DNA of 64,000 bases from Haliotis rubra (Eukaryota), in contig NW_025766026.1 in NCBI RefSeq assembly GCF_003918875.1, positions 1,488,001 through 1,552,000 of the forward strand, written 5' to 3'. The notes under the pieces are model-generated. The model saw only the letters and a list, made by a program, of their open reading frames with translations, was not told where the DNA came from and did not search any database. Numbering within the stretch: position 1 is the first letter of the stretch; each line of letters begins with the position of its first letter. Positions 5,960 to 48,590 of this stretch are shown piece after piece. The position numbers were made by a program, and so were the translations under genes.

Positions 5960-6628
5960 CCATATATGCATCCGCTACCAAGGTTAGAAATATCATATTT
6001 AAATTAGGTTTGGGTATCACACACTTACGGAGATAAAAACGTTTTTGTTAAAATGTTTTTTCAACGACTGAAAGATAATTTTCGGCAAGTTTGCCATAGT
6101 GATTTATCTGAGAGCCCCAAAATGTTTACGTATTGTAATTTTAAATTAACGATTTCTTGTGAAACATACTTAACTCATATTACTGTATCCAAATATAGAT
6201 CTTGTTTATCACGATTTAGGTTAAGTTCCCATAGTTTAGAAATTGAAAGAGGCCGTTACTATAACATTCCCCGGGAACAAAGAACATGCAAAATGTGTAA
6301 CTTAAACGTAATTGAAAATGAATATCACTTCTTACTTATCTGTCCAGCTTACATCGAATTAAGACGTAAATATCTGTTGTCGCAATTCTATGTTTTCCCC
6401 AATATACTAAAATTCAATTCGTTGTTATCATCCAAAAATGAAGACATTTCCTTGAATACTGCTTAATATCTGTTTTATGCATTCGAAAAAAGGAAATCAA
6501 TTTTGTCATATTAAGATTGCATAGATTATACATGCTTTCATTGTTATCATTTTATTTCATGTCTGCACCGATGAGGTGTTTTTGTACTCATAGGCCCGTG
6601 GCCTCATAGTATCAGAAATAAAGATTTG
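5960..6628 (+). mobile_element. 5'-truncated 3' end of a CR1/L2/RTEX-like LINE nested in the I-group LINE
   Basis: ORF 6053-6466 has RFRLSSHSLEIERGRY...CKMCNLNVIENEYHFLLICPAY (C-terminal CCHC); 3' UTR has hairpin aggcccgtggcct followed by aataaa. Confidence 0.82.
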
Positions 6629-28294: not shown

Positions 28295-29620
28295 CAAGCA
28301 CCGTGCCAAAAGTGTTGCTATGAAAATGGCCGGCGTTCTCAGTAGAGGTTCTCACCTGAAATTTTCAAGCAATAAATACGACTTTAAAATTTTTTTTTTC
28401 TTACCTTGTTTTGACTATCATGTGGTGATATAACCTCTCTGAAACCCTACACTCCTCAATCTCCGTGGAATGGAATGGTATAAACTAGATATATACACTG
28501 GAGTCAGGCTTTGCCAGATCCTAGTTACACTGTCTATGAGGTCCTGGCGTGTTTCGAGGCCGGCGGTTTCTTTATTAAGTTTGACACATTTCCACACATT
28601 TTCTATAATGTTAAGGTCTGGAGATTGTGCAGGCCAGACAAAAGTAGGGAGGTTGTTTGCTGTTTTCCACTCAGTGGTCAGTCTTGACCTATGGGATGTA
28701 GCATTGTCATCTTGGAAAATAAATTCATTATTTCCAAACACTTTGGTCACAACAGGCCATAAATGTTCATCAATAAGTTCAATATAGTGTTGTGGGTTCA
28801 GGGTACCCTCAACTGGTACAAGTGTTCCAACGCCATCCTTCGTTATGCACCCCCAAAACATACAGCTAATCCGAGCCAGTACCCACACTCGGATCTCCAC
28901 TTCTCCTAAGATTTTCTCCAGACATAAACAGACTTGTTTTTTTCCAATCGCCACCTGAGTTTCATCAGAGAAAATTTTCCTCCATGTCTCTTATTCCTAC
29001 ACCAAGCAATCCTCTTTCTTCTGTTCACCTTAGAATTTGTGATAGTTTTCCGAATAGCACATTTTCGAAAACCATAGAAATGCAGTCTTCTTTGAACAGT
29101 TCTTTTAGCTAATACTTGATTGTATACATTATTGAATTCATGAGTTCAAATCTATCAAAGACTGCCTACGATTACCTTGCACCATACGACAAGTCGGCGA
29201 TCACTTCTCTGGTCAGACAATTTGGACCTCCCACTTCTAGCCTTGTTTTCTGATGAACCGCAGGCAGAAAATTTCTTCTACACTCTAGAGACAGTAGATT
29301 CATGTATCCCCCAAATCTTAGCTATGTTGCAATTTTTTTCTCCACTATGTTTAAAACAATATTAACCTTTCTTTCAACCTGGGAGTCAATTCTCTTCTGA
29401 CAGCAGCCATGATTTCATCTCCAGCGTAAACAGGATGTCGTCTGCTCCACCTACTTCCTGTAGGTGCTAGGTGAAAAAGTAACACACAAAATATAATCTT
29501 ATACCAACATTTATTTCTGGATGTAAACAGTGTAAATTTTTGTATCCAAATACCTAACGGCCATATCAGCTCAAATACAGTGGCAGCCATTTTTCTTGCA
29601 ACACTTTTGGCATGGTGCTG
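28295..29620 (-). mobile_element. Tc1-family (DD34E) DNA transposon, full length with TIRs and TA TSD
   Basis: TIRs caagcaccgtgccaaaagtgttgc / gcaacacttttggcatggtgctg; TA on both sides; exact empty site cagacattatatatttcc at 35193-35210. Confidence 0.95.
28418..29410 (-). pseudogene. Frameshifted Tc1 transposase
   Basis: Start MAAVRRELTPRLKER; IFSDETQ (about 28955-28975); MFWGCI; FQDDNATSH...WPAQSPDLNIIENVW with 34 residues between the second D and E; N-terminal half broken. Confidence 0.93.
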
Positions 29621-35685: not shown

Positions 35686-38620
35686 CTATTAATCTTATAA
35701 CTAAAAACCCAACATTTACTGAAATCCTTCTATTGATAAAAATGACATGTCTCTCCCATTTGATTTAGTTGTTAAATCAAATGTATGTCTGGTGGTTAAT
35801 ATGTAATATAGTCCTTCAACCTCCATTCACAAATAGCCTCTATTCTAAAAACCTATACACAGAATTCCATCATTTGGTGCGGGGCAAATGCATATTGATT
35901 TATTAATCGTCATGTTAAACCCATGTATCCCCTCTATTAGGTAAAGCTATCCATCTTTGTTTCAACCACATTTCACCGTTTCACAATATTCAAAGATCTC
36001 ACCATGATCTGACAAACACACCCATTCAAACTCCGTGGCTATGTTTTAAATAGCATCTGCAGTGTCAGATTGTACTTTGAAAAGCCATATTATATGGCGC
36101 TGTTATTTTGTATCAGTATTCCAAGGTACCAGTGTCACTACTTAGGCGATGATGTTTCCACACTTTTTCGTTGTTCCAGCTCCATGATATATTAAGGACA
36201 TTATCAGAAAGAAACCCATTGCTATTAGATGTGGCATTTCTAACCATCTGGTCATCCCGTCTCTCTATCGTCTTCCGAGTCTCCACGTCCCTCGCAACTT
36301 GTTCAGACAGCACTTAATCAATATGTTATTTTAGACCTCTCCTTGTCACTTTGGCGTGCATCGAGTTCGTTAGCACACAATATTAGAATCACCTTGGCAG
36401 GTCTTAATGCTATTTGAGAAGAGATTTCACATAAAGTTTCACTCGGAGCGAATATCCTTTACTTGACAATTCAAAGATATTTATTGAGTCGTACTGAAAG
36501 GAGTTAAAACCTCGACTATCGTGTAAGCTAAGTACGCAGGGGGATCTCTGTTCACACACCATCGGCACCTGTTGAAACAAGGTATCTCGCAAAGCAACTA
36601 ATTGTGTGAATATTGCACAGTGGATTGTGTTTCAGGTGAACAATGGACCAGCCAATGCATATGTTTATGACGGGTGCCACCGGTTTTAATACTGAGTAAT
36701 GCTGAGTCCAACAGACACGTAACCATGATATAGTATACAATCGACTTCTTAGCGTAGATTTCTTACGGGTGTGGAAACGGTCTTGTCCTTTTTATTTACA
36801 CAAAACTACTCCAGACAGTGAATTGTTATTTTTAGATCTCCTAATTCAAAGCTGAGAAGTGTATAACCCTTGTCATATGAAAGTGTCAAATAAAAAATAC
36901 ATAGTGGCTGGAATCTATGTTGCTTGGAAATGTCACCAGACACATTTACAAGTGGCAAAGGAATCACACATATGTCGTTCTGCATTTATCTCGTTGGAAT
37001 AAACATTCAAAGACAATGAATCATGTAGTTTCTCTTCAGGCAGATGTCGTTAAGACACTGACACTTGATGTGTTCTTCTTAAGTTTGACCAGCGTGTTAT
37101 CGTGTCCAATTTTGGTGTAGACAATAACAAAGGTTAATCTATTCTCTTTTATACCTCTCAGACTAGCTACCTCCTTGTCATCAGAGATCCAATACATTGT
37201 GTGCAAAATAAAAACAACAGCAGATTACTATATCTGGCGCTGGTAAAACTGTAAAAGAAGACACCCTCGTCTGACAAATTTGATCCTAATGTCGCACTAC
37301 TAGGATTGCCAAGTTTAAGCCAACTATGCAACGTACATGTATGCATCAAGTCTGAATTGTTCATCTGATTGAAAGGTGCTCCCACAGATACAGGTAATGA
37401 AGATATTTAAATGCAAAATGATACCTCGGACCAAGGGATAATATAAGTCTTAAATGTATAACTTCATCAACAGAATATTGCAAGTCTGGAATATCCACCG
37501 ATACAGCCAGTCATTTACAAACCACCAGAATATGAAATGAAAAACACACACTTATCCAAGTCATCATCTACCTGATTAACTCTATTCCAGAAATTGCAGG
37601 GAACTTATCTGGAAAACAATTTACAATAAAAGTGATTTTTCATTCATCATGTTCCTTGATGGGGTCAATATACATGGTGTTCAGGCACCTGCTGTAGGTA
37701 AGAGCAAATTCATGATGACGCCAACAAATTCCACTGTCCTACAAATACTGACCAAGGTCTTCTGGGACGGAAAAAGGTATCAGAATATAATGTGCTACAG
37801 TTTAACGCTATGATTTTCACCCGCAAAGGTTCCGGGTCAGAGTAGGTCAACAGGATTCCGTAAGTGTCTAACGCAAGTCATCTTACCCGCACGTTCTTGA
37901 TGGTTGCTCGTATCAAAACTATATTGTCTTGTCCAGTCTCGATTGTTCACATGCTGCTGTCCTACAGCAGGGGTATTCCTGATTGATGAACGACAAATAG
38001 AATGTTACATCTTACTCAGCTAATATGGGCCGAACGTAATGTATGTAAACTAGTAAATGCAATAAGATTTTATCTCCAGACAACTGTCTACACTAGCTAA
38101 TCCCCAAGACGTGTTGCAGTCACACGAGCCGTCGGTGGTGACAAGTGGTAAGAGGTCGTTGGCATTTGCAACTGTCGTTACCAAAATACCCATTCAGTGA
38201 GGCAGGGATCGTCACCATTTAGTGGTTAGTGATCGTGCGTTCGTTCAGTTACACATTGACCTCTATATTTATGTAAACTGGTCAAAAAACAATATCATCC
38301 ATTCCTGGTTTTTCGTCCAGTTACACTCTCTAGCAGCTCGTGCCTCTTGACTAAACAACGAAAGATACATTACTTGCTTTTCAAAAGTACCTATCTGGAT
38401 TGTATAATTTTCTTTTTCAAAAACAAAGCAACCTTTAGCTATAGCGCAAGGTGTATTAATTGTATCTGGGCCAGTGGTTGATAGTATGATCACATCGTTG
38501 GGGAGACATGCAAGCAGCCAGGTGATCCATTGTAACCATCCAACCCTCATTGTGGTCAACGCTTATGACAGAAATGGTGTACTGAATACGGACTCTGACC
38601 TTGATTCTCCACTGCCAACA

Positions 38621-38781
38621 TGGGCGTTGGGGTAGCCTAGTGGTTAAAGCGTTCGCTCGTCACGCTGAAGACCCGGCTTGGATTCCCCACGCGGGTACAA
38701 TGTGTGAAGCCCATTTCTGGTGTCCCCCGCCGTGTTATTGCTAATATATTGCTAACAGCGGCGTAAAACCCTACTCAATCA
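38621..38781 (+). mobile_element. tRNA-derived SINE (family 1) specific to U5
   Basis: ggggtagcctagtggttaaagcg...; TSD ctccactgcca at 38607-38617 and 38782-38792; empty site at about 15419 and 23972. Confidence 0.92.
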
Positions 38782-40981
38782 CTCCACTGCCAGTCTTTAC
38801 TGATGGAACATGTTAGTTGGATGCGCATAGTACGTGTGACTGGGATGGTAGTTAATGTTTGTCAGTGACATGATCCGGCATCGAGAATGACCCCAAGCAT
38901 CCTGTATGATCAGGCTAAAGAGGAAAACCATTAACGAATTCTTGATGCACTTTTCATTGTTAATCTGCTGTATTGCCTGTTCAAACTTAACAGCCTTTGA
39001 GTTGTTTTGAGAACTTGATGTAACCCTGATGGCTATGATGATTAGTTTCATGGCAACCTGCAGCGATAACAACGTCAATGTTGGTGACGGATGTTTAAAG
39101 GATCGGCCATTAGATTGGTACATTCGTATTAAACTGAGTCAACTTTTTATATTTATAGCCAGAAGCTGCTTTCTTTGGAGCCACTTTACCGCGTCTGTAA
39201 TTATCAAACGGATGTCTCTGACAAGGAGATTACTTCGGAAAGTATTTTGCAATTAGTTCTCAATGTCAGAAGACGCGATAGATTCACTACACAGCAAAGT
39301 CCCCAGGAATCCGAAAGGCATGGTGGTCGTCGAAGCAACCAGACGGCTCGGATTGAAGACGTTGTCGTTGCTCCCAATATCGATCACCCTTCTGCTCATC
39401 CAGGCTTTATTCTTTACAGCCCGTCGTAATATCGCTGAAGTATTGCTGACAACATTCTTTGAAGGTATTTCCATGCTCGATTTTCTTTCTAGAAGCGACT
39501 GAAATTAATGGGTACATGGGTGACTGTGTGGTATTGTGCCACAACTGAGTGATTCCTTCTTCATGCTATAAACCACTTACGTGCTTTGCCAAGATTCGAC
39601 AATTAACAGGCATGATACAGGTGGAAAATGCTATATTAGGCAAATAGTTCTAGAAAAAGAATTGTTTTTAAATTGATGAAACACAAACGAAATTAGCAGA
39701 ATGACATTGAGGAAACTATAAATAGTGATTCAAGGTATTTGATTCACGGTATAAATTCTTTATACCCATACGAATATGTTATTGTAAAACAATGCTAGCA
39801 AATGTGTTAGCATATCCACCAACAGAACGTGCCGTACAGAATGACTCGAGATGACTGGACATTGAAAGAAAAACAACGTCCGTGGTTTATCTGTTCCAAG
39901 AAATATGAGTATTTTCACTGTTAAACTGAGTTGTTAGAATGAATTAAATTGACAGATGTTTCATGTCGTTGTCGTGCGTTAAATATTATCCTATAGAAAC
40001 AAGACAGATTTGAAAAACTTTGAAAGAGTAGGGTTGTTTGAGAGTGAGATAGAAATGCACAGATGTTCGTCCGCGCTATGCAATATTCCTAAAAACTCAA
40101 ATTCATTTAGTCGCTTCCCACAGTAAGCATGTTTTGCTGGAGTTGACAGAGATTTTCTACAGACATGTGGAGGACATTCCAAATGGGATGCAATAGAGCC
40201 CAATATAATGTTCCATGCAACTTCCTATTTTGGCTTATACCATGTGGGGATAACTTTGCATGTGTTTGTGACGAGGATAGGCTCCCTTTTTCTCAATTAT
40301 CTGATACCATTAATGTTCGATGGGTATTGATCAACGCATGTTTATGATATAATTGGAATCGTAAAATGGCGATTCTTTAAGATTGGAAATGGTTTTGTGA
40401 CATTTATATATTTTGAATGAATAGCTATAAAAAATAGCTCTGCGGAACTCATCCTTCCTTTCTCGAAGTTGAGTCAGCTAAGTCCAACGACTGACGGATA
40501 CGGAACGTTCACTGAGTATCACCACCGTTGATACGTCATAAAAGGGGTGAACTCGATTCAGGAAAACACTGTGATGAAAGAATAACATGGACCTTGATTT
40601 CACTACACTGTTACTGTTATATGATCACAATCTTCAAGGTTTGTTACAACCCATTCTTAGATATGACTGAAATACTGTTCAACCCAGTGCCAAAACAAAC
40701 TCATTCACTCAATCATTCTCAAAAACACAGAAATTAATGCTTGGAAACCGACACACCGATTTGACATTGTTCAAGAACAGTGGTTAATGCATGGTAACAG
40801 AAACAGGACTGTTAGGTTATTATTATTATTATGTTTTACTGATTAAAGATGAAAATGCAGCAGAGAGGGTTCGGGTGATCCTGGCACAGTCAGGCTGGTC
40901 AGGCTCATCATCAGCTCAGGGCCGTCGCCCCCTCTACACGCAGCCCAGACAGCGAATGGGAATTCCCCAAGGAAACACTGC

Positions 40982-43900
40982 CTAGTCGAACCCACCAAGA
41001 ACTTTCCGGAGAATATGAAGGCTCCCCAACACTGCAGCCTTCTGCATTACCCACAGTGTCAGAAGGGCTGTGCTCCCGGTGGAGAACCCGGTCACTCTCC
41101 TGATCTGCGCCAAGAGATCAGGAGGTACCAAACCAAGGGCACCGAGAACAATGGGGAGCCTGACGACAGTGAACTTGGAATGCAAGCGAGACATTTCAAA
41201 GGCGAGGTCCGCATATTTATCATGCTTTTCCTGAATCTTGCCAATCATATTGCTGTCAAAAAGGGACAGAAAATGCATTGATATAAATACATTCATTGGC
41301 TTTATCTAACAGGACAAGATCAGGTTTGTTGGCAGGAATTCTTCTGAGGCTGTATATAGGCCTGTTCGACAGAAGTTTGAAAGCATCATTTTCCATGACG
41401 CCTTGGACATGTTCAGGGTCGTACCATGGATGGACCTCGGAGCTAAAGCCACAGACATGGCGGAGACGGTAGTAAAAGCAACGAGCCATGTCATCATGTC
41501 GGTTAAGATATGTGTTGTGCCAAAGAAGGGCATCCACTGACAACATGTTGTACAGTCTCTGTAAATTCATTACATAGTCGACATTTCAGATTGATATTTT
41601 CTTTAAGAATCACATTTAGGCAATTACGAGTGGGAAGTGACTGGGCCTGAGCAGCAAAAAGGAAGCCCTCAGTTTCACATTTAAGACCAGCCGACTTCAT
41701 CCAGGCGAAGAGTCGGTGGGATTGCTATTCTGTTCCACACACTGCATGTACACACGATGCAATGGCTTCTCAGAAAGCTTCTCCACAAAAGACCGACTCT
41801 GGGCAGACTTGGTGAAAGACTTCACCTGGTTTACTCCCATTGCTGTACCGTCCAGCAGTACATCGGCATCAGCAAAATCAACCTCAAATTTCTGAATTGA
41901 TTGGCATATATAAACGGTTAAGAGATGAACGAGGGTGGTGGGCTCTGTTATCAGACATGATCCTTCTGGTCATACGGTCAAGTCTCTGGATGCCTTGTTT
42001 TGTCCAGTCAACTGCTCCAAAGGAATAGGAAAGGACTGGCACGGCAAAAGTATTGGTGGCTTTGACCTTGTTTCGAGCATTTAGCTCTGAGCTCTAGATT
42101 TTCTTTAAGCGGGCTTTGTACTCGGCCCGAAGTTTGTCTTGAATTTGGGCATTCTGGAGCTTGTCTCGAACTTGCATTCCAAGAAAGGTGTAGGCCTGAT
42201 CTTCCACAAGATGCTCAATAACTCCTCCCCCCTGTAACTTGACCGATCCACCATTAACTACCTTGCCACGTTTCCAAATGAAGAGTTTTACATTTGTCGA
42301 GCCCAAATGTCATGCCAATATTATTAGAAAAAGACTCGACAAGGAGAACCTGTTCTTTCAAATTGGTATCTCCTTTGGCAAGGAGCTCGATGTCATCCAT
42401 GTAAAGGAGATGAGTAATTTAAGCGGTGTTTAGGATCTGTGCTGTGGAGGTCCGGGATGGTAACCCTCCTCTCTGTTGAGCAGAAAGCTCAAAGGATTTA
42501 GAAACAAACAAAAACGCAAAGGACTGAAGGAGTCCCCCTGGAAAATTCCCCTTCTGATTGGAATAGATTCCGAAGTCTGCACCTGCCCTTGCGAGTACAT
42601 CTCAAGTTGAGTCGACCAGTAACTCATTAAAGACTTGAGTAAATCAAGTAGTCGCTCCGGGAGGTCAATACAACAAAGAGATTTCAGAACCCATTCATGA
42701 GGGACAGAGTCGTATCCTTTTTTGTAGTCAATCCAGCACATGGAGAGGTTGTGGTAATATGTTTTAGCCTCTTCCAAAATCATTTTCTGTACAAGAAGTT
42801 GATCCTTGCACCCCCAGCATTTCTGCTCTCTGTAAATTATATCATTGGAAAAGAAGTAAGATGACACGAGACTTGTTAAACACCCTGTGAATATTTTATA
42901 CTGAGTATTCAAACATGTTTTGGGGATCAATCAAGTCTTCTTTTTGGGAAAGAGTATTGTGCGACCTTTGCAGAACCATGGATGAACATCACCAGTGTCA
43001 ACAAGAGAATTGAAACAGTGTCGTAATGGTGTTTGGACACAGGGGAACAGTTTCCAGTACCGGTTTCGAATGCCATCAGGCCCTGGGGCTGTATTAGATT
43101 TGGACTTTTTGATGAAACTTTTCAGGCAATCTGGTGAGATGTAACAGACAAACGACCTAGTTACTTTCTCATGCATTGCATGGCCATAATCACGGACCTA
43201 TGGTGCCTCCAGGTTACAGTCGCCGGGTACAGACCACAACTCTTTCCAGAACCTTTCATTGGCATCCATGCGAGGCCGTTTATCATGCTCACCATCACCG
43301 TTTGTTTTCAGTTGCCTGTAGAAGTGTTTTTCATTATTTCTAAAAAAAATTATTTTGTTTGATGAATTTATTTTTTCCCATTTTTTCTTTCTTTCAGTCC
43401 AAACCTTTATTTTTGCCTAAAGGGAATCGACAATTTGGAGAAGTATCTTTTCTTTCGTTGTTTTGTATATCAGTTTTAATTTTCTCCAAATTGCCTTTTT
43501 CGTTTAGACATGGGATTCCCTGATGATCTTAATTTCAGGCAAAGCTCTATCCAGGAAATGTATTTTCTATTTTCTGTTAGTTTCACATGAAACCGTTTTT
43601 TCTTTGATGTATTGTTCTTAGTATTGGGTGTGTTTTCTTTGGAAACTGTGTGAAGTTCCTCCAAGGTACGAGCGGCAGCATAGACACAACAATTCACTTC
43701 ATGTAATGAACAGTCCGCAGAAAGTTTCATAGAAATAATGTCATTTAATGAATTAATTTCATTTTTGGGAAAAGATCAGTTGTTTGTTTAATTGGCCTCC
43801 GTTTTTCTAAAGGTAAATAAGATATTTCATCATAAATAGAATGAAACAAAATATACACAGGATTTTTGGAAAGATCTGCAACTGAGGAAGAGGAAGAGTG

Positions 43901-44260
43901 AGGCTCCGAAATTTCGGGGCCAACTGGCTCAATGCCGGAAGAGTTTCCATCAGGAAGAGGAGAGAGGTCAACGCGGACGTGCATCAGAAGTTTTGGGTCT
44001 GCTGCCACTTGAGCATTCTGCTCATGCAAAGGTTCCTGACGGGCATCTGTTATGGGGGGAACTTGCTCACGGGGCAAGGGATTTTTAAGCTGCCGGAATT
44101 GATCTTGGAGATTTTGCTCTGTCAGGAAAGCATACATGGGCATGGCATTGTCCCAATGCAGCCCATCCTGTTGCTCTTGCACACTCTAGTAGTGTGGTTT
44201 TCAGATGGTTTGACCAAGATAGTTTTGATCGGGTGCTGTGCCTTCCCCTGGGGCAAGTCC
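40982..44260 (-). pseudogene. Disrupted single ORF (RT + CCHC + RLE) of the R4/Dong-like element
   Basis: APGPDGI; WIDYKKGYDSVPHEW; RGIFQGDSFSPL; HLLYMDD (about 42392-42415); KCRLCNEFTETVQHVVSGC; RHD; ANKPDLVLLDK; KHDKY; MQKAAVLGSLHILRKVL. Many frameshifts; start position approximate. Confidence 0.9.
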
Positions 44261-44387
44261 CATCTCCAGTAAGGTTGGTTTGACTACCGGAGGAAGTCTG
44301 ACTGGGCTGCGGAGTTGAAAGATGATATTCTCCTTGGCTTTCGGTAACCCAGTGTAAAACCAGCTTCGGGGGGTCAGCCTAACTGGG

Positions 44388-44462
44388 TGATGTGCGTTTA
44401 GTTCAGGGAATAAAATTCCCCTAACTAGGCTCACCACGGAGAGGCGTACATCATCAGGCCCC
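44388..44462 (-). ncRNA. Candidate HDV-like self-cleaving ribozyme at the retrotransposon 5' end
   Basis: Minus strand GGGGCCT GA TGATGTAC GCC TCTCCGT GGT GAGCCT AG TTAGGGGAATTTTATTCCCTGA ACTAAAC GCACATCA can be drawn as P1, P2, P3/L3, P1.1, P4, J4/2 in HDV order; one mismatch each in P1 and P2. Confidence 0.6.
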
Positions 44463-46150
44463 ATAATTATTATTATAATTAATAATATTATTATTCAGGG
44501 TAACGACACCGTGATAATAACGGAAAATAACCAATGCTTGACAACAGGTACACTACTATTTTAATTAACAGAGCATCTGTTCTTGGAACATTGAGGCTGA
44601 CGGAAGTTCTCTGGTTGAGGCACCCTGACATCTCATGAAGACAAATATAACATAAGAGAATCCCAGTGAAATACATTCGGAAAACACTGCAACATCAACA
44701 TTAGACCCGGTTCTGTCCTGTATTCATCTCATTGAGTTCCTTGCAAATGCGTTCGAGATGTTTGTATTACGTTTTGTCAAGCATGTTGATCCACAATATG
44801 TTTGCAAGCAAATGCGTCAGGAATACTTTGTCTTGTCGATCGCTTACTTTGATGGGATTTTTAAAGGAAATATTTCTTGGGGTTAGCTGTTTGAAGAAAG
44901 TTCAAATGAATTTGATGAAAGGAATTGGGAAAGTATCAAAAACTGGAGAAGTCCATGACACCATGAAACTGTAAACGACCTTGCAGGGTTTATATAAATG
45001 AATGTGATCACGAAATGGGTTTGTGTTGATTTGTGCTCAGTTGATAATGATTTCTGGTGTTGTGATGCATGTGATATGAGCTGATAATGCACTGTTGAGA
45101 CTGGGGCACTCATGCTGAGGTATGCGGAGCTGAGGAGTTAGATGTCTGAATGACTCTGTAAACATTTACCAACACCACGTTTACATGATCTTGGACAGGG
45201 TATTAGAGTCCCGGCACTACTAGCTATTGATTTAACTGATTTCTCACTTCAGAAAGGTTTTGTAAAGGTTCTCCTTCCTTTCATTTCCTCTGTTAGCATT
45301 GCATTATGCCCTCCTCAAATGTTTTTGTTTATCCACCTACAACCAAGGTTATACAAACTCTACAAGATTGCATGCACTTGGTGTACACAGGAGAGAGGAA
45401 TTTCCCGAAAACATGTCTTCCTCTGAAGAAGATCCTTCAGTTGGTATGTGTTTGATCTCAGGTGGCACATGGCCAATTTCCCGTCACTCGAGGCTGTTTC
45501 GATTCCACTTGAGCTGTGTGTATCAAGAACATCCATTGCAATGTCAAAGGTAAAGGATGCGAGTCAATCCCGGTCGATAATGAACAGCCGCTGCGTTATG
45601 TTACTGTTACTGCCCACTAATATTGAAGTGACGTTAAACATTTTTATCGATTGGTACAACAGTTTTGAGGTGTGATATGTTACGGGCTACCATCACTGAA
45701 TCAACGTCTTTAACAGTTTGTTAACTCGTGTCTGATCCTACCGAGATGAATCCTCGGCTCTTAATTGAAAAGGGAAACTATCATCTGGATATATCATAAA
45801 AATATGTATGAATATGAACCACAAACCTGATCAGGCAACATTAACGTACAGGTGCGTTTATCAGTATGTCATGGAGTGAAGTATGCATTTGAATTTGTGC
45901 TTTTGTGTTACTTGACATCATAACTACAATTGTCGCTATATTCACAGTACAATGACGTCAACTGGAAGTTTACTGATGTCTTGAGACAATGGATCGTATA
46001 ATGTCAATCATAAATCATACCAGGGCCTCCATGTTCAGCAAAGTTCAACAAAAAATATTCAAAAGTTCTTTGAAAGGTTTATTCTTTCATTTAACAAGAA
46101 TGTACATCAAAGGATAACGGTCCTTTCCTCCTGGTAGCTCCTCCACTTAC

Positions 46151-48590
46151 TTAACGTTTCAATTCAGTCAGAATGTATTTCAAGAATTCTGTACGACTGC
46201 ATCCTATTATTCATGTTATTCTGTGCAATCAATATTCCGGTAATAGAGAATGTATAAATATATACACATAATTCCATCATTTAGTGCGGGGTAAATGCAC
46301 ATAAGTTCTTTTTTAAATATCACGTTAAACCCATTTAACTCTATCGGGTAAAGCTACCTCTACCTATCCATCATTGTTACAACCACATTTGACCGTTTCG
46401 CAGTATTCAAAATTTTGAAATAAAATCAGTTGCAATCTATCTTATTCATGCCAATGGTTTCTTAAAACATAAACTTTAAAGAACTTGATCTGAGAAAAAT
46501 ACCCATTCAAATTCGTTGGCCATGTTTTAAATTTGCAAAGCCGGATTGTATTTTTATGGAGGTATTCACTAGTCTCCCACAACGTACAGGTTTTCTATCA
46601 AGACGATGATGTATTCAGATATTTTCTTTGTTCCAGCTCCATGAGGGGAAAACATATCGTCAGGATATCGTATTTAGGACATTATCAGAAAGAAACCCTT
46701 TGCTATTAGATGTGACAATTCTCACAAATCTGGCCATCTCGTCTCCCTATCGTCTTCCGATCCTGCACGTCCCTCGCAACTGGTTCAGACAGCACTTAAT
46801 CAATATGTTATTTTAGACCTCTGCTTGTCACTTAGGCGTGCACCGAGTTCGTTAGCACACAGCGTTAGAATAACCTTGTCAGGCGTTAATGCTGTTTGAG
46901 AAGAAGTTTCATCCAAAGTGTCTCTCGGAACGAATATACTTTACTTGATAACTCAAAGATAGTTATCGAGTCTTACTGAAAGGCGTTAAAACCTCAAATA
47001 TGCAGAGAGAATTTACTTGTTTTTGCACACACCATCGGCATACATTTGATATGAGGTATCTCGTAAACCAACTAATTGTGTGAACATTGTGCAATGCCTT
47101 GTGTTTCAGGTGAACAGTTCAATAGCCACTGCATATGTTTATGACGGATGCCACCGGTGGGGCAGAATAAGCTCACCTTTTGGCGAACCCCTGGTATGAT
47201 CATTTTGAGAATGATTCATAAACACATGCTCTGACATCGTATTTTATGGTGTCAATCACACGATTGTCTAGTCCAAACTCGATTGTTTATAACCGTGTCA
47301 TCATGTACTAATACTGCCGAATGATGCGTCAAACAAACACGTTCTCATGATAAACCTGGTATTGTACAGTCGACTCTGCTTTTAGCTGTTAACAGAAGTG
47401 ACAAGGATTTCTATTCATACTAAACACCCCCAGATGGTAATTAAATGGCCACTTGATACTATGTTTAGATCACCTGATTCAAAACCGAGACGTGTATAAT
47501 ACGTGTCATATGAAAGTGTCAAATGAAAAAATACATAGTGGCTGGAATCTAGGTTATTTGGAAATGTCACCAGACATATCTAGAAATGGCAAATGAATCA
47601 CACATTTGCCGTTCTGTAGTTCTCACGTTGGAATAAACACTCAAAGGCAATAAAACAAGTAGCTTCTATTTTGATGGAGACAGCTGTCGTTAAGACACTG
47701 ATACTTGATATGTACTTGTTATGTTTGTCAAGCGTGTTGTCTTGTCTGATTTTGGTACAGAAAACAACAAAGGCTAATCAGTTCTCTTTTAAATCTCACA
47801 GACAAGCTTTCTCCTTACCATTACAACGTCAATGCATTGTGTGCAAGACAACAACATAGATTAAAAAATAAAGCTTTATTCAAAAGGCTTCTTATATAAG
47901 AACTTTAGTTCTTGATGTCGCGCTAGAGGGGCTGGCAGTTATAAACAAACTATGCAGTTGATTCATCAAACCGGAATGATGCGCACTATGGCATGTACGA
48001 TGATGATCTATATATGCAAGCATGATCTCAGACCAAGGTACAACTCGTGACAAAGACTGCATCAGGTTTAAATGTATAACGTCAGTGCTAGAGATTAACC
48101 ACCCTCGACTATCCACTTCAACCCGCTGAATATATATTATCCACCAGAATATGAAATCAAAGAAACAAATAACCTAGATCAACATGTTCCTGCGCAGATC
48201 TATGAAAAGGAATTGTTGTGAACATAAAAAATGTGCTGAAGGATTTACGATAAAAGTGGGTTTTTTTACATCATTTTCATCTTGCGCTGGGTCTGAAAGC
48301 AAATTGCGTCTATGTTTACTTCAACACATTTCACTTTGTTTGTGAAATCATATTCAACAATGCACTTATAATATCTGCTGCATTTCTCTTTCTATGATTG
48401 CGGCCAACGGAGGTTTCGGGCAAGAGCAGGTCCTCAAGAACCTATGCTGTTTTAGTGACCCACTTAACATTGGGTCGGATTCGGATGATCAGATCCCGTA
48501 AGTGTCGATCGAAAGTCATCTTCCGATGTTGTTGTGGTCGCTCACATCAAACACTGTATTGTCTTGTCCAGACTCGATTGTTTACATAGA
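46151..48590. repeat. Large-array unit U6 (partial, increasingly diverged, right end of array)
   Basis: Landmarks at 46678, 47028, 47505, gatgtcgcgctagag (about 47914), accagaatatgaaatcaaagaaac (about 48143), old SINE at about 48395. Confidence 0.85.

Follow-up and report, generated by a model that had tools for sequence, protein, structure and literature searches.

The closest described systems are Bombyx mori Dong and Ascaris R4, which belong to the same clade as the element studied here, share its TAA target and carry a ribozyme at the exact 5' junction, with its predicted cut at the first element base (PMC3774820; Ruminski et al. 2011 cited there). For Bombyx Dong, the co-transcription assay in that source records self-cleavage at the TAA junction with release of a 21-nt TAA leader (PMC3774820), which bears out the premise of an earlier, sequence-only preliminary description of our locus that non-LTR elements can cut themselves free with 5' HDV-like ribozymes. 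The 5' ribozymes of R2 likewise form a double pseudoknot with a P1 of 6-7 bp, are released from co-transcripts and have a proposed role in cap-independent translation (PMC3774820, PMC6765202, PMC12203849); they differ from the present case in that R2 targets 28S rDNA, is often cut upstream in the 28S sequence and has a long J1/2, whereas here the predicted ribozyme is 74 nt long, with a 2-nt J1/2 and a reading frame that is open from the cut. Trypanosoma cruzi L1Tc begins with an HDV-like head of ~75 nt (Pr77) and, as here, is a LINE found in tandem (PMC6765202), but it is an APE-type element and its head doubles as an internal promoter. The HDV-like ribozyme of Faecalibacterium prausnitzii (RF02682) has a consensus with UCU in L3, an AG partner for P1.1 and two bases between CUAA and the 3' strand of P2, all as here; unlike the present one, it is bacterial, has a 7-bp P1 and occurs outside retrotransposons. 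The action of 5' HDV-like ribozymes in R2, R4 and Dong elements is already known, and is extended here to a large, recently active, TAA-specific family. This family differs from Bombyx Dong and Ascaris R4 in host lineage and sequence, and its ribozyme is a prediction from sequence.

The window, that is, the whole 64-kb stretch of Haliotis rubra DNA that was analyzed, contains a non-LTR retrotransposon of the R4/Dong clade on the minus strand (44461-40832; all features below are on this strand unless marked otherwise), with TAA tracts on both flanks. The degenerate target tract 5' of the element lies at 44463..44495, followed by a single extra junction G at 44462, and the downstream tract at 40817..40831. 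In our judgment, the head of this family is very probably an HDV-like ribozyme, likely cutting between the last TAA and the first G, and the copy in the window a poorly cutting relic with three private substitutions and a broken ORF. That single ORF (40982..44461) comprises a conserved, putatively Myb-like N-terminal domain, reverse transcriptase (RT), a CCHC knuckle and a restriction-like endonuclease, and a 3' UTR ending in AAAACA follows it (40832..40981, from the sequence and the family copies). In the window copy the ORF is interrupted by many stops and frameshifts, the RT and zinc-knuckle matches are in fragments, and ~168 bp are deleted near 41894 relative to other copies. The longest family frame seen has 1213 aa, with RVT_1 and zf-RVT matches; it also contains a PD..(D/E) motif, which we take to be that of the endonuclease. 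R2 proteins are its closest solved structures, and among its 1068 homologs the best 120 are 33-39% identical to it.

R4/Dong elements are described as having a single ORF, a restriction-like endonuclease and a TAA target (PMC7998251, PMC3812793), and as carrying an N-terminal divergent Myb/SANT-like domain without zinc fingers (PMC7998251). The ORF plan and target of our family fit this description: RT, CCHC knuckle and restriction-like endonuclease lie in one ORF, and at least three TAA units are present in the last 30 bases of the 5' flank in 98 of 102 5'-complete copies. The junction itself reads AATAA/GGG in 67 of these 102, the others mostly gaining or altering a few bases; such a mixture of uniform and slightly changed junctions is expected from cleavage at the exact 5' junction (PMC3774820). 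Copies number in the hundreds in the genome, where a search with the 5' 331 bases gave 457 first-look candidates and the ribozyme core pattern 303 matches (55 for its reversed control). The family is young, with ~95% column identity. For family counts, 160 matches were reduced to 119 distinct copies and then, by leaving out 17 with truncated or partial heads before counting, to the 102 5'-complete ones; one copy on another contig is the same insertion as the window copy and was dropped from most counts, leaving 101. Some copies were chosen by their 5' sequence or core pattern; for some counts, copies selected by RT alone are given as well. Upstream of RT matches, 48 of 99 loci gave no match to the 5' end; these look 5'-truncated or rearranged and share no common alternative head.

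The predicted ribozyme spans 74 nt (44388..44461) and was delimited as a descriptor match with its cut 5' of G 44461, which we number base 1 (G1); HDV-like ribozymes cut 5' of the first P1 base (PMC4908430). P1 has 6 bp beginning with a G-U pair (44461-44456 with 44432-44427, bases 1-6/30-35) and is fully paired in the majority form, one private mismatch being found in the window copy. A P1 of 6 or 7 bp is typical of these ribozymes (PMC3774820), G1 being paired to U or C. P2 has 8 bp (44453-44446 with 44395-44388, bases 9-16/67-74; all eight in the majority form, against a usual minimum of five), and P3, from the family alignment, has 3 bp (44445-44443 with 44435-44433, bases 17-19/27-29). 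P2 and P3 are pseudoknotted with P1 and paired in 96.5% and 98.6% of alignment cells, respectively. The 7-nt L3 (44442-44436) has, by family counts, a conserved first U and sixth G, as needed for the reverse wobble, and its bases 2-3 form a two-pair P1.1 (C-G plus U-A) with AG at 44426-44425 (bases 21-22/36-37). P4 is a hairpin of 7 bp with a 3-nt loop (44421-44415 with 44411-44405, bases 41-47/51-57); its loop is variable, and in 10 copies a G-U pair is changed to A-U. J4/2 (44396..44401) reads C-Y-R-A plus two extra bases, and its first base, C61 (44401), is the candidate catalytic C, which by analogy with Bombyx Dong and R2 would serve as general acid.

Some details of this architecture are atypical. 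J4/2 is two bases longer than in the CRRA descriptor (PMC6326823), and J1/2 has 2 nt, where spacers of 0-1 nt reportedly left ribozymes with little activity or none (PMC4908430). Neither the U-A pair in P1.1 nor the pair of extra J4/2 bases is unprecedented, because the RF02682 consensus has both. A second register (P1 7, P3 2 and P2 9 bp) may be compatible with the sequence as well, and the two are not separable because the bases involved show no variation. C62 is present in 42 copies, for which a second J4/2 register (C62-A-A-A) fits too, and either C could serve as the catalytic base in these subfamilies. Even in those majority-type copies that have T62, C61 is paired with G37 at a probability of ~0.9 in the nested ensemble, a model that leaves pseudoknots outside; nested folding thus favors a misfold in the T62 subfamilies. 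A hammerhead reading of CTGATGA at 44457-44451 was rejected by eye, as no GAAA with matching stems was seen.

All of the segments named in the preliminary description are present, and its central claim, an HDV-like fold at the exact R4/Dong 5' boundary, agrees with our results: the first P1 base is the first non-TAA base of the element, and the family keeps the fold. Its numbering began one base early, at the extra junction G 44462, and it put the cut 5' of the G run; the predicted cut lies instead inside that run, between 44462 and 44461. The U-A pair of the CT/AG P1.1, which it took as compensatory, is no peculiarity of this element, since the RF02682 consensus likewise has UCU and AG; P1.1 also shows no covariation within the family.

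Among the family copies, the majority form closes every helix of the HDV-like double pseudoknot, including P1, P2 and P3, whose failure to pair in the family consensus had been named beforehand as one outcome that would count against a ribozyme. All 19 core pairs (P1, P2, P3 and P1.1) together with U20, G25, C61 and A64 are kept, with no indels, in 69 of the 101 copies; for copies selected by RT only, 30 of 42 keep these pairs and bases. By position, G1 is found in 95 of the 101, U20 in 99, G25 in 100, C21 and T22 in 99 each, and A36 and G37 in all; J4/2 begins with C in 98, continues with T/C and then A/G, and has the following A in 99. Six substitutions are present in at least 10 copies: C/T at base 23 (L3 position 4), G/A at 41 (P4, G-U to A-U), A/T at 49 (P4 loop), T/C at 62 and A/G at 63 (both J4/2) and A/G at 69 (P2, U-A to U-G). 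All six are tolerated by the fold model, whereas of the 30 changes that affect paired positions in one copy only, 24 disrupt the pairing. The chance of six out of six being tolerated is 0.002-0.025 under a tolerance list that is our own and was drawn up after the site had been seen.

Covariation across copies had been proposed as a check, and it can be answered in part. When 50 of the 102 copies, picked to include variants, were aligned, 97.2% of cells paired, compared with 24-48% for slid controls, and so pairing is kept; double-sided changes occur in 2 cells only, a level reached by 19-57 of 500 shuffles, the remaining changes being one-sided and consistent. The fold is kept by the family but cannot be proved by covariation because the family is too young. 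In two older copies, C stands at the first and at the last wobble position of P1, which in one of them consists of six Watson-Crick pairs; in a second organism, one contig carries differences at positions 4 and 7 of L3. Other sources of covariation were tried and set aside. A search of this genome for R4 families at a greater distance used a TAA-plus-canonical-core pattern, whose 18 matches comprised 3 of this family and 15 of a different element; among 150 places scored with a 39%-identical homolog as the query, what came back seems to be this family again; and the oldest-looking copy recovered one close relative only. In 80 related metagenome loci, about six of which appear to hold a 5' end, no descriptor match of score 10 or more was found upstream of the ORF, and an Rfam scan of 12 metagenome loci gave no HDV match.

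How far the fold could be chance pairing in a GC-rich 5' end depends on which copy is considered. The descriptor, which is our own and was composed once the site was known, matched only the ribozyme site on both strands of the 64-kb window. In 994 dinucleotide shuffles, matches of any score arose at 0.23 per window, those reaching the window copy's score of 6.0 at 0.13 and those reaching the majority-form score of 11 at 0.002. Taken alone, the fold of the window copy is only modestly beyond chance. Chance would also suit the results of nested-only folding, which was not better than for shuffles (z -0.01 to -1.5), and of Rfam. An Rfam scan of window positions 38000-48000 gave no HDV match; a 201-base search with a majority-type copy did return RF02682 as the top match, at E 0.12 and 19.4 bits, where the gathering score is 44. 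The Infernal-type search that had been suggested earlier therefore points to the right kind of model for the majority type, below threshold, and leaves the window copy unmatched; for neither copy did an Rfam HDV-like match reach gathering score. This threshold test is insensitive, because another HDV-like family of this genome, canonical in appearance, falls short of it as well, at 28.3 bits. What makes the ribozyme call convincing is the position at the element's first base together with the family: in five of five full-length copies (~4.7 kb each, both strands) the sole descriptor match begins at element base 1. Since the motifs of L3, P1.1 and J4/2 are also in register and the clade offers a published precedent, we give chance pairing hardly any credence. 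A different explanation gives the 5' 100 bases another function for which they would be conserved, that of an internal promoter, a protein-binding site or a translation element; the HDV-like fold would then be a non-cutting vestige, or its cutting incidental. Conservation does continue, equally high, past the ribozyme end to about base 100, codons 26-34 having no subfamily differences, and the atypical J4/2, short J1/2 and strong nested alternative fold could be read in the same way. In L1Tc, the initial 77 nt reportedly serve as promoter and ribozyme at once (PMC3383444), so that a promoter would be compatible even with cleavage. However, P1 starts exactly at the element boundary and the common variants leave all of the catalytic and pairing positions alone, as the fold predicts, and so we regard this explanation as very unlikely. 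Coding constraint was also considered as the source of ribozyme conservation and rejected, codons 1-25 having 1 synonymous and 5 non-synonymous subfamily differences.

If the family ribozyme is real, the window copy might still cut usefully, despite its three differences from the majority form. These are at bases 31, 38 and 68 (44431, 44424 and 44394), each in 1 of 101 copies and each contradicted by nearly all of the depth in a deep run of the same species. L3, P3, P1.1, P4 and C61 are unaltered, and mismatches are reported at the top of P1 in about a quarter of R2 ribozymes, and in P2 in a third (PMC3774820). The mismatches here, however, are a C-A in the middle of the 6-bp P1 (44431) and an A-C at the second pair of P2 from the core (44394), and P1 mismatches are associated with lost cleavage in other HDV-like ribozymes (PMC3774820). 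The change at 44424 adds to P4 a 5-bp helix in which both C61 and the partner of P1.1 are taken up, with a nested ensemble probability of 1.00. In energy, P1+P3+P4 falls from -17.9 kcal/mol in the majority form to -11.3 in the window copy (a loss of 6.6) and P2+P3+P4 from -17.5 to -12.8 (a loss of 4.7), while the competing helix gains 4.3, from -0.8 to -5.1. A window copy that still cuts usefully is thus improbable; with P1 and P2 broken, the likely catalytic C buried and the ORF dead, its boundary is intact and its ribozyme probably impaired. The preliminary description had taken the 5' end to be intact, which holds for the boundary, and had noted the P1 and P2 mismatches and a competing TAGTT/AACTA helix. 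The mismatches are real but private (44431 and 44394), and the strong form of the helix, though present, is peculiar to this copy through 44424. With its six subfamily variants and many decayed copies, this 74-nt natural ribozyme makes up a series for probing fold tolerance.

For the family, then, the preferred reading remains a 5' ribozyme. If Bombyx Dong and R2 are a guide, transcripts arriving from a flanking gene or an upstream copy would be cut 5' of G1, leaving an uncapped RNA with a 5'-OH, and every new insertion would receive a copy of that end. From G1 onward the ORF frame is open: in 56 of 101 copies it stays so through 116 codons, while the other two frames close at codons 2-3 and ~12, and it is open in all six subfamilies. 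The first in-frame ATG is codon 119 (44141..44143), within the conserved N-terminal domain. This domain is common to 94 of 102 homologs and was matched at residues 76-147 (E 3e-8); Pfam gave no name for it. Codons 81-119 have 14 synonymous and 4 non-synonymous subfamily differences. The position of the domain and this synonymous excess place the start upstream of the first in-frame AUG, so that a non-AUG start is implied for the family ORF, and translation would begin without AUG within the first 75 codons. Because the pre-AUG part alone scores 4.6 bits, within the range of shuffles, the case for coding there rests on the whole domain and the codon pattern.

One candidate start is CTG at codon 34 (44361..44363), in an A(-3)/G(+4) context, the motif being found in 85 of 101 copies. 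Ruminski et al. 2011 reportedly deals with translation initiation by such ribozymes. Cap-independent initiation of this kind has been proposed for R2 and L1Tc (PMC6765202, PMC12203849). P2 is followed directly by CCCAGT and, further downstream, by ACTGGG (44387-44347); the two motifs, each found in 92 of 101 copies, lie on either side of a variable loop and could form a further helix beside the ribozyme, around the candidate CTG. Codons 35-60 (~44360-44285) are hypervariable, with 25 non-synonymous and 3 synonymous subfamily differences and no stop or frameshift in the six subfamilies. Inside the ribozyme, two tandem out-of-frame ATGs begin a 9-codon upstream ORF (44454-44425) that ends at a TAG overlapping the 3' strand of P1 and P1.1.

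Many copies are arranged head-to-tail: 41 of 101 (14 of 42 among the RT-selected) directly follow another copy's 3' end, mostly 9-12 bases away. Because of this arrangement, a downstream ribozyme would also trim the 3' end of the upstream copy, and in such arrays the next copy's ribozyme would release RNA one unit long, with three to four UAA units at its end. An origin of the tandem copies from uncut dimer RNAs was considered and set aside; in four of four arrays compared, neighbors differ at 12-22 of ~250 bases, as much as between subfamilies, which fits separate insertions better. Tentatively, and with more doubt than belief, we suggest that one compact ribozyme (6-bp P1, U-A P1.1, six-base J4/2) could do three jobs: make the 5' cut; launch AUG-independent translation, in a frame open at the cut site, of a protein whose DNA-binding domain starts 43 codons upstream of the first AUG; and, in arrays, form the upstream copy's 3' end of three to four UAA units. 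If so, the arrays would be self-processing sources of unit-length templates. The AUG-less start of an R4/Dong ORF and tandem ribozymes that make both ends of the template RNA are the more useful leads from this locus; a search of the open-access literature gave no account of either.

Some further observations concern other elements. A second, much larger family in the same genome has a canonical HDV-like head, with 2884 genome-wide matches to its core pattern compared with 11 for the control (loci L051-L080, for example L057:1484-1540). The descriptor is passed by 20 of its 30 loci, about five bases take the place of P4, and the bases that precede P3 and follow CUAA change in concert (C/G in 22 of 30, A/T in 3 of 30). 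An ORF downstream has weak zinc-knuckle matches and suggests a two-ORF LINE, presumably I/LOA-like. Among the metagenome relatives, two that are flanked by TAA (L163:369-470 and L201:3155-3260) share a 5' motif consisting of a 3-bp stem, a 6-nt TCCTCA loop and RCCCA plus GG, with pairing to an upstream TGGGT; this is possibly an HDV-like variant outside the descriptor. Two others have tRNA-like sequence upstream of the ORF (L134:84-167, an Rfam tRNA match above gathering, and L155:about 145-220, by eye), a hint that some members of the clade may have heads derived from tRNA or may target tRNA genes. Within the window, the 3' UTR of the R4/Dong element repeats, at ~40918-40900, the 9-mer CTGATGATG of the ribozyme P1-P2 junction, which may be chance. 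Elsewhere, a minus-strand fragment at 28418-28990 resembles a Tc1-type transposase, a plus-strand fragment at 6008-6466 resembles the C-terminus of another LINE ORF, and positions 1-1575 are a tandem array of ~28 copies of a 50-bp unit.
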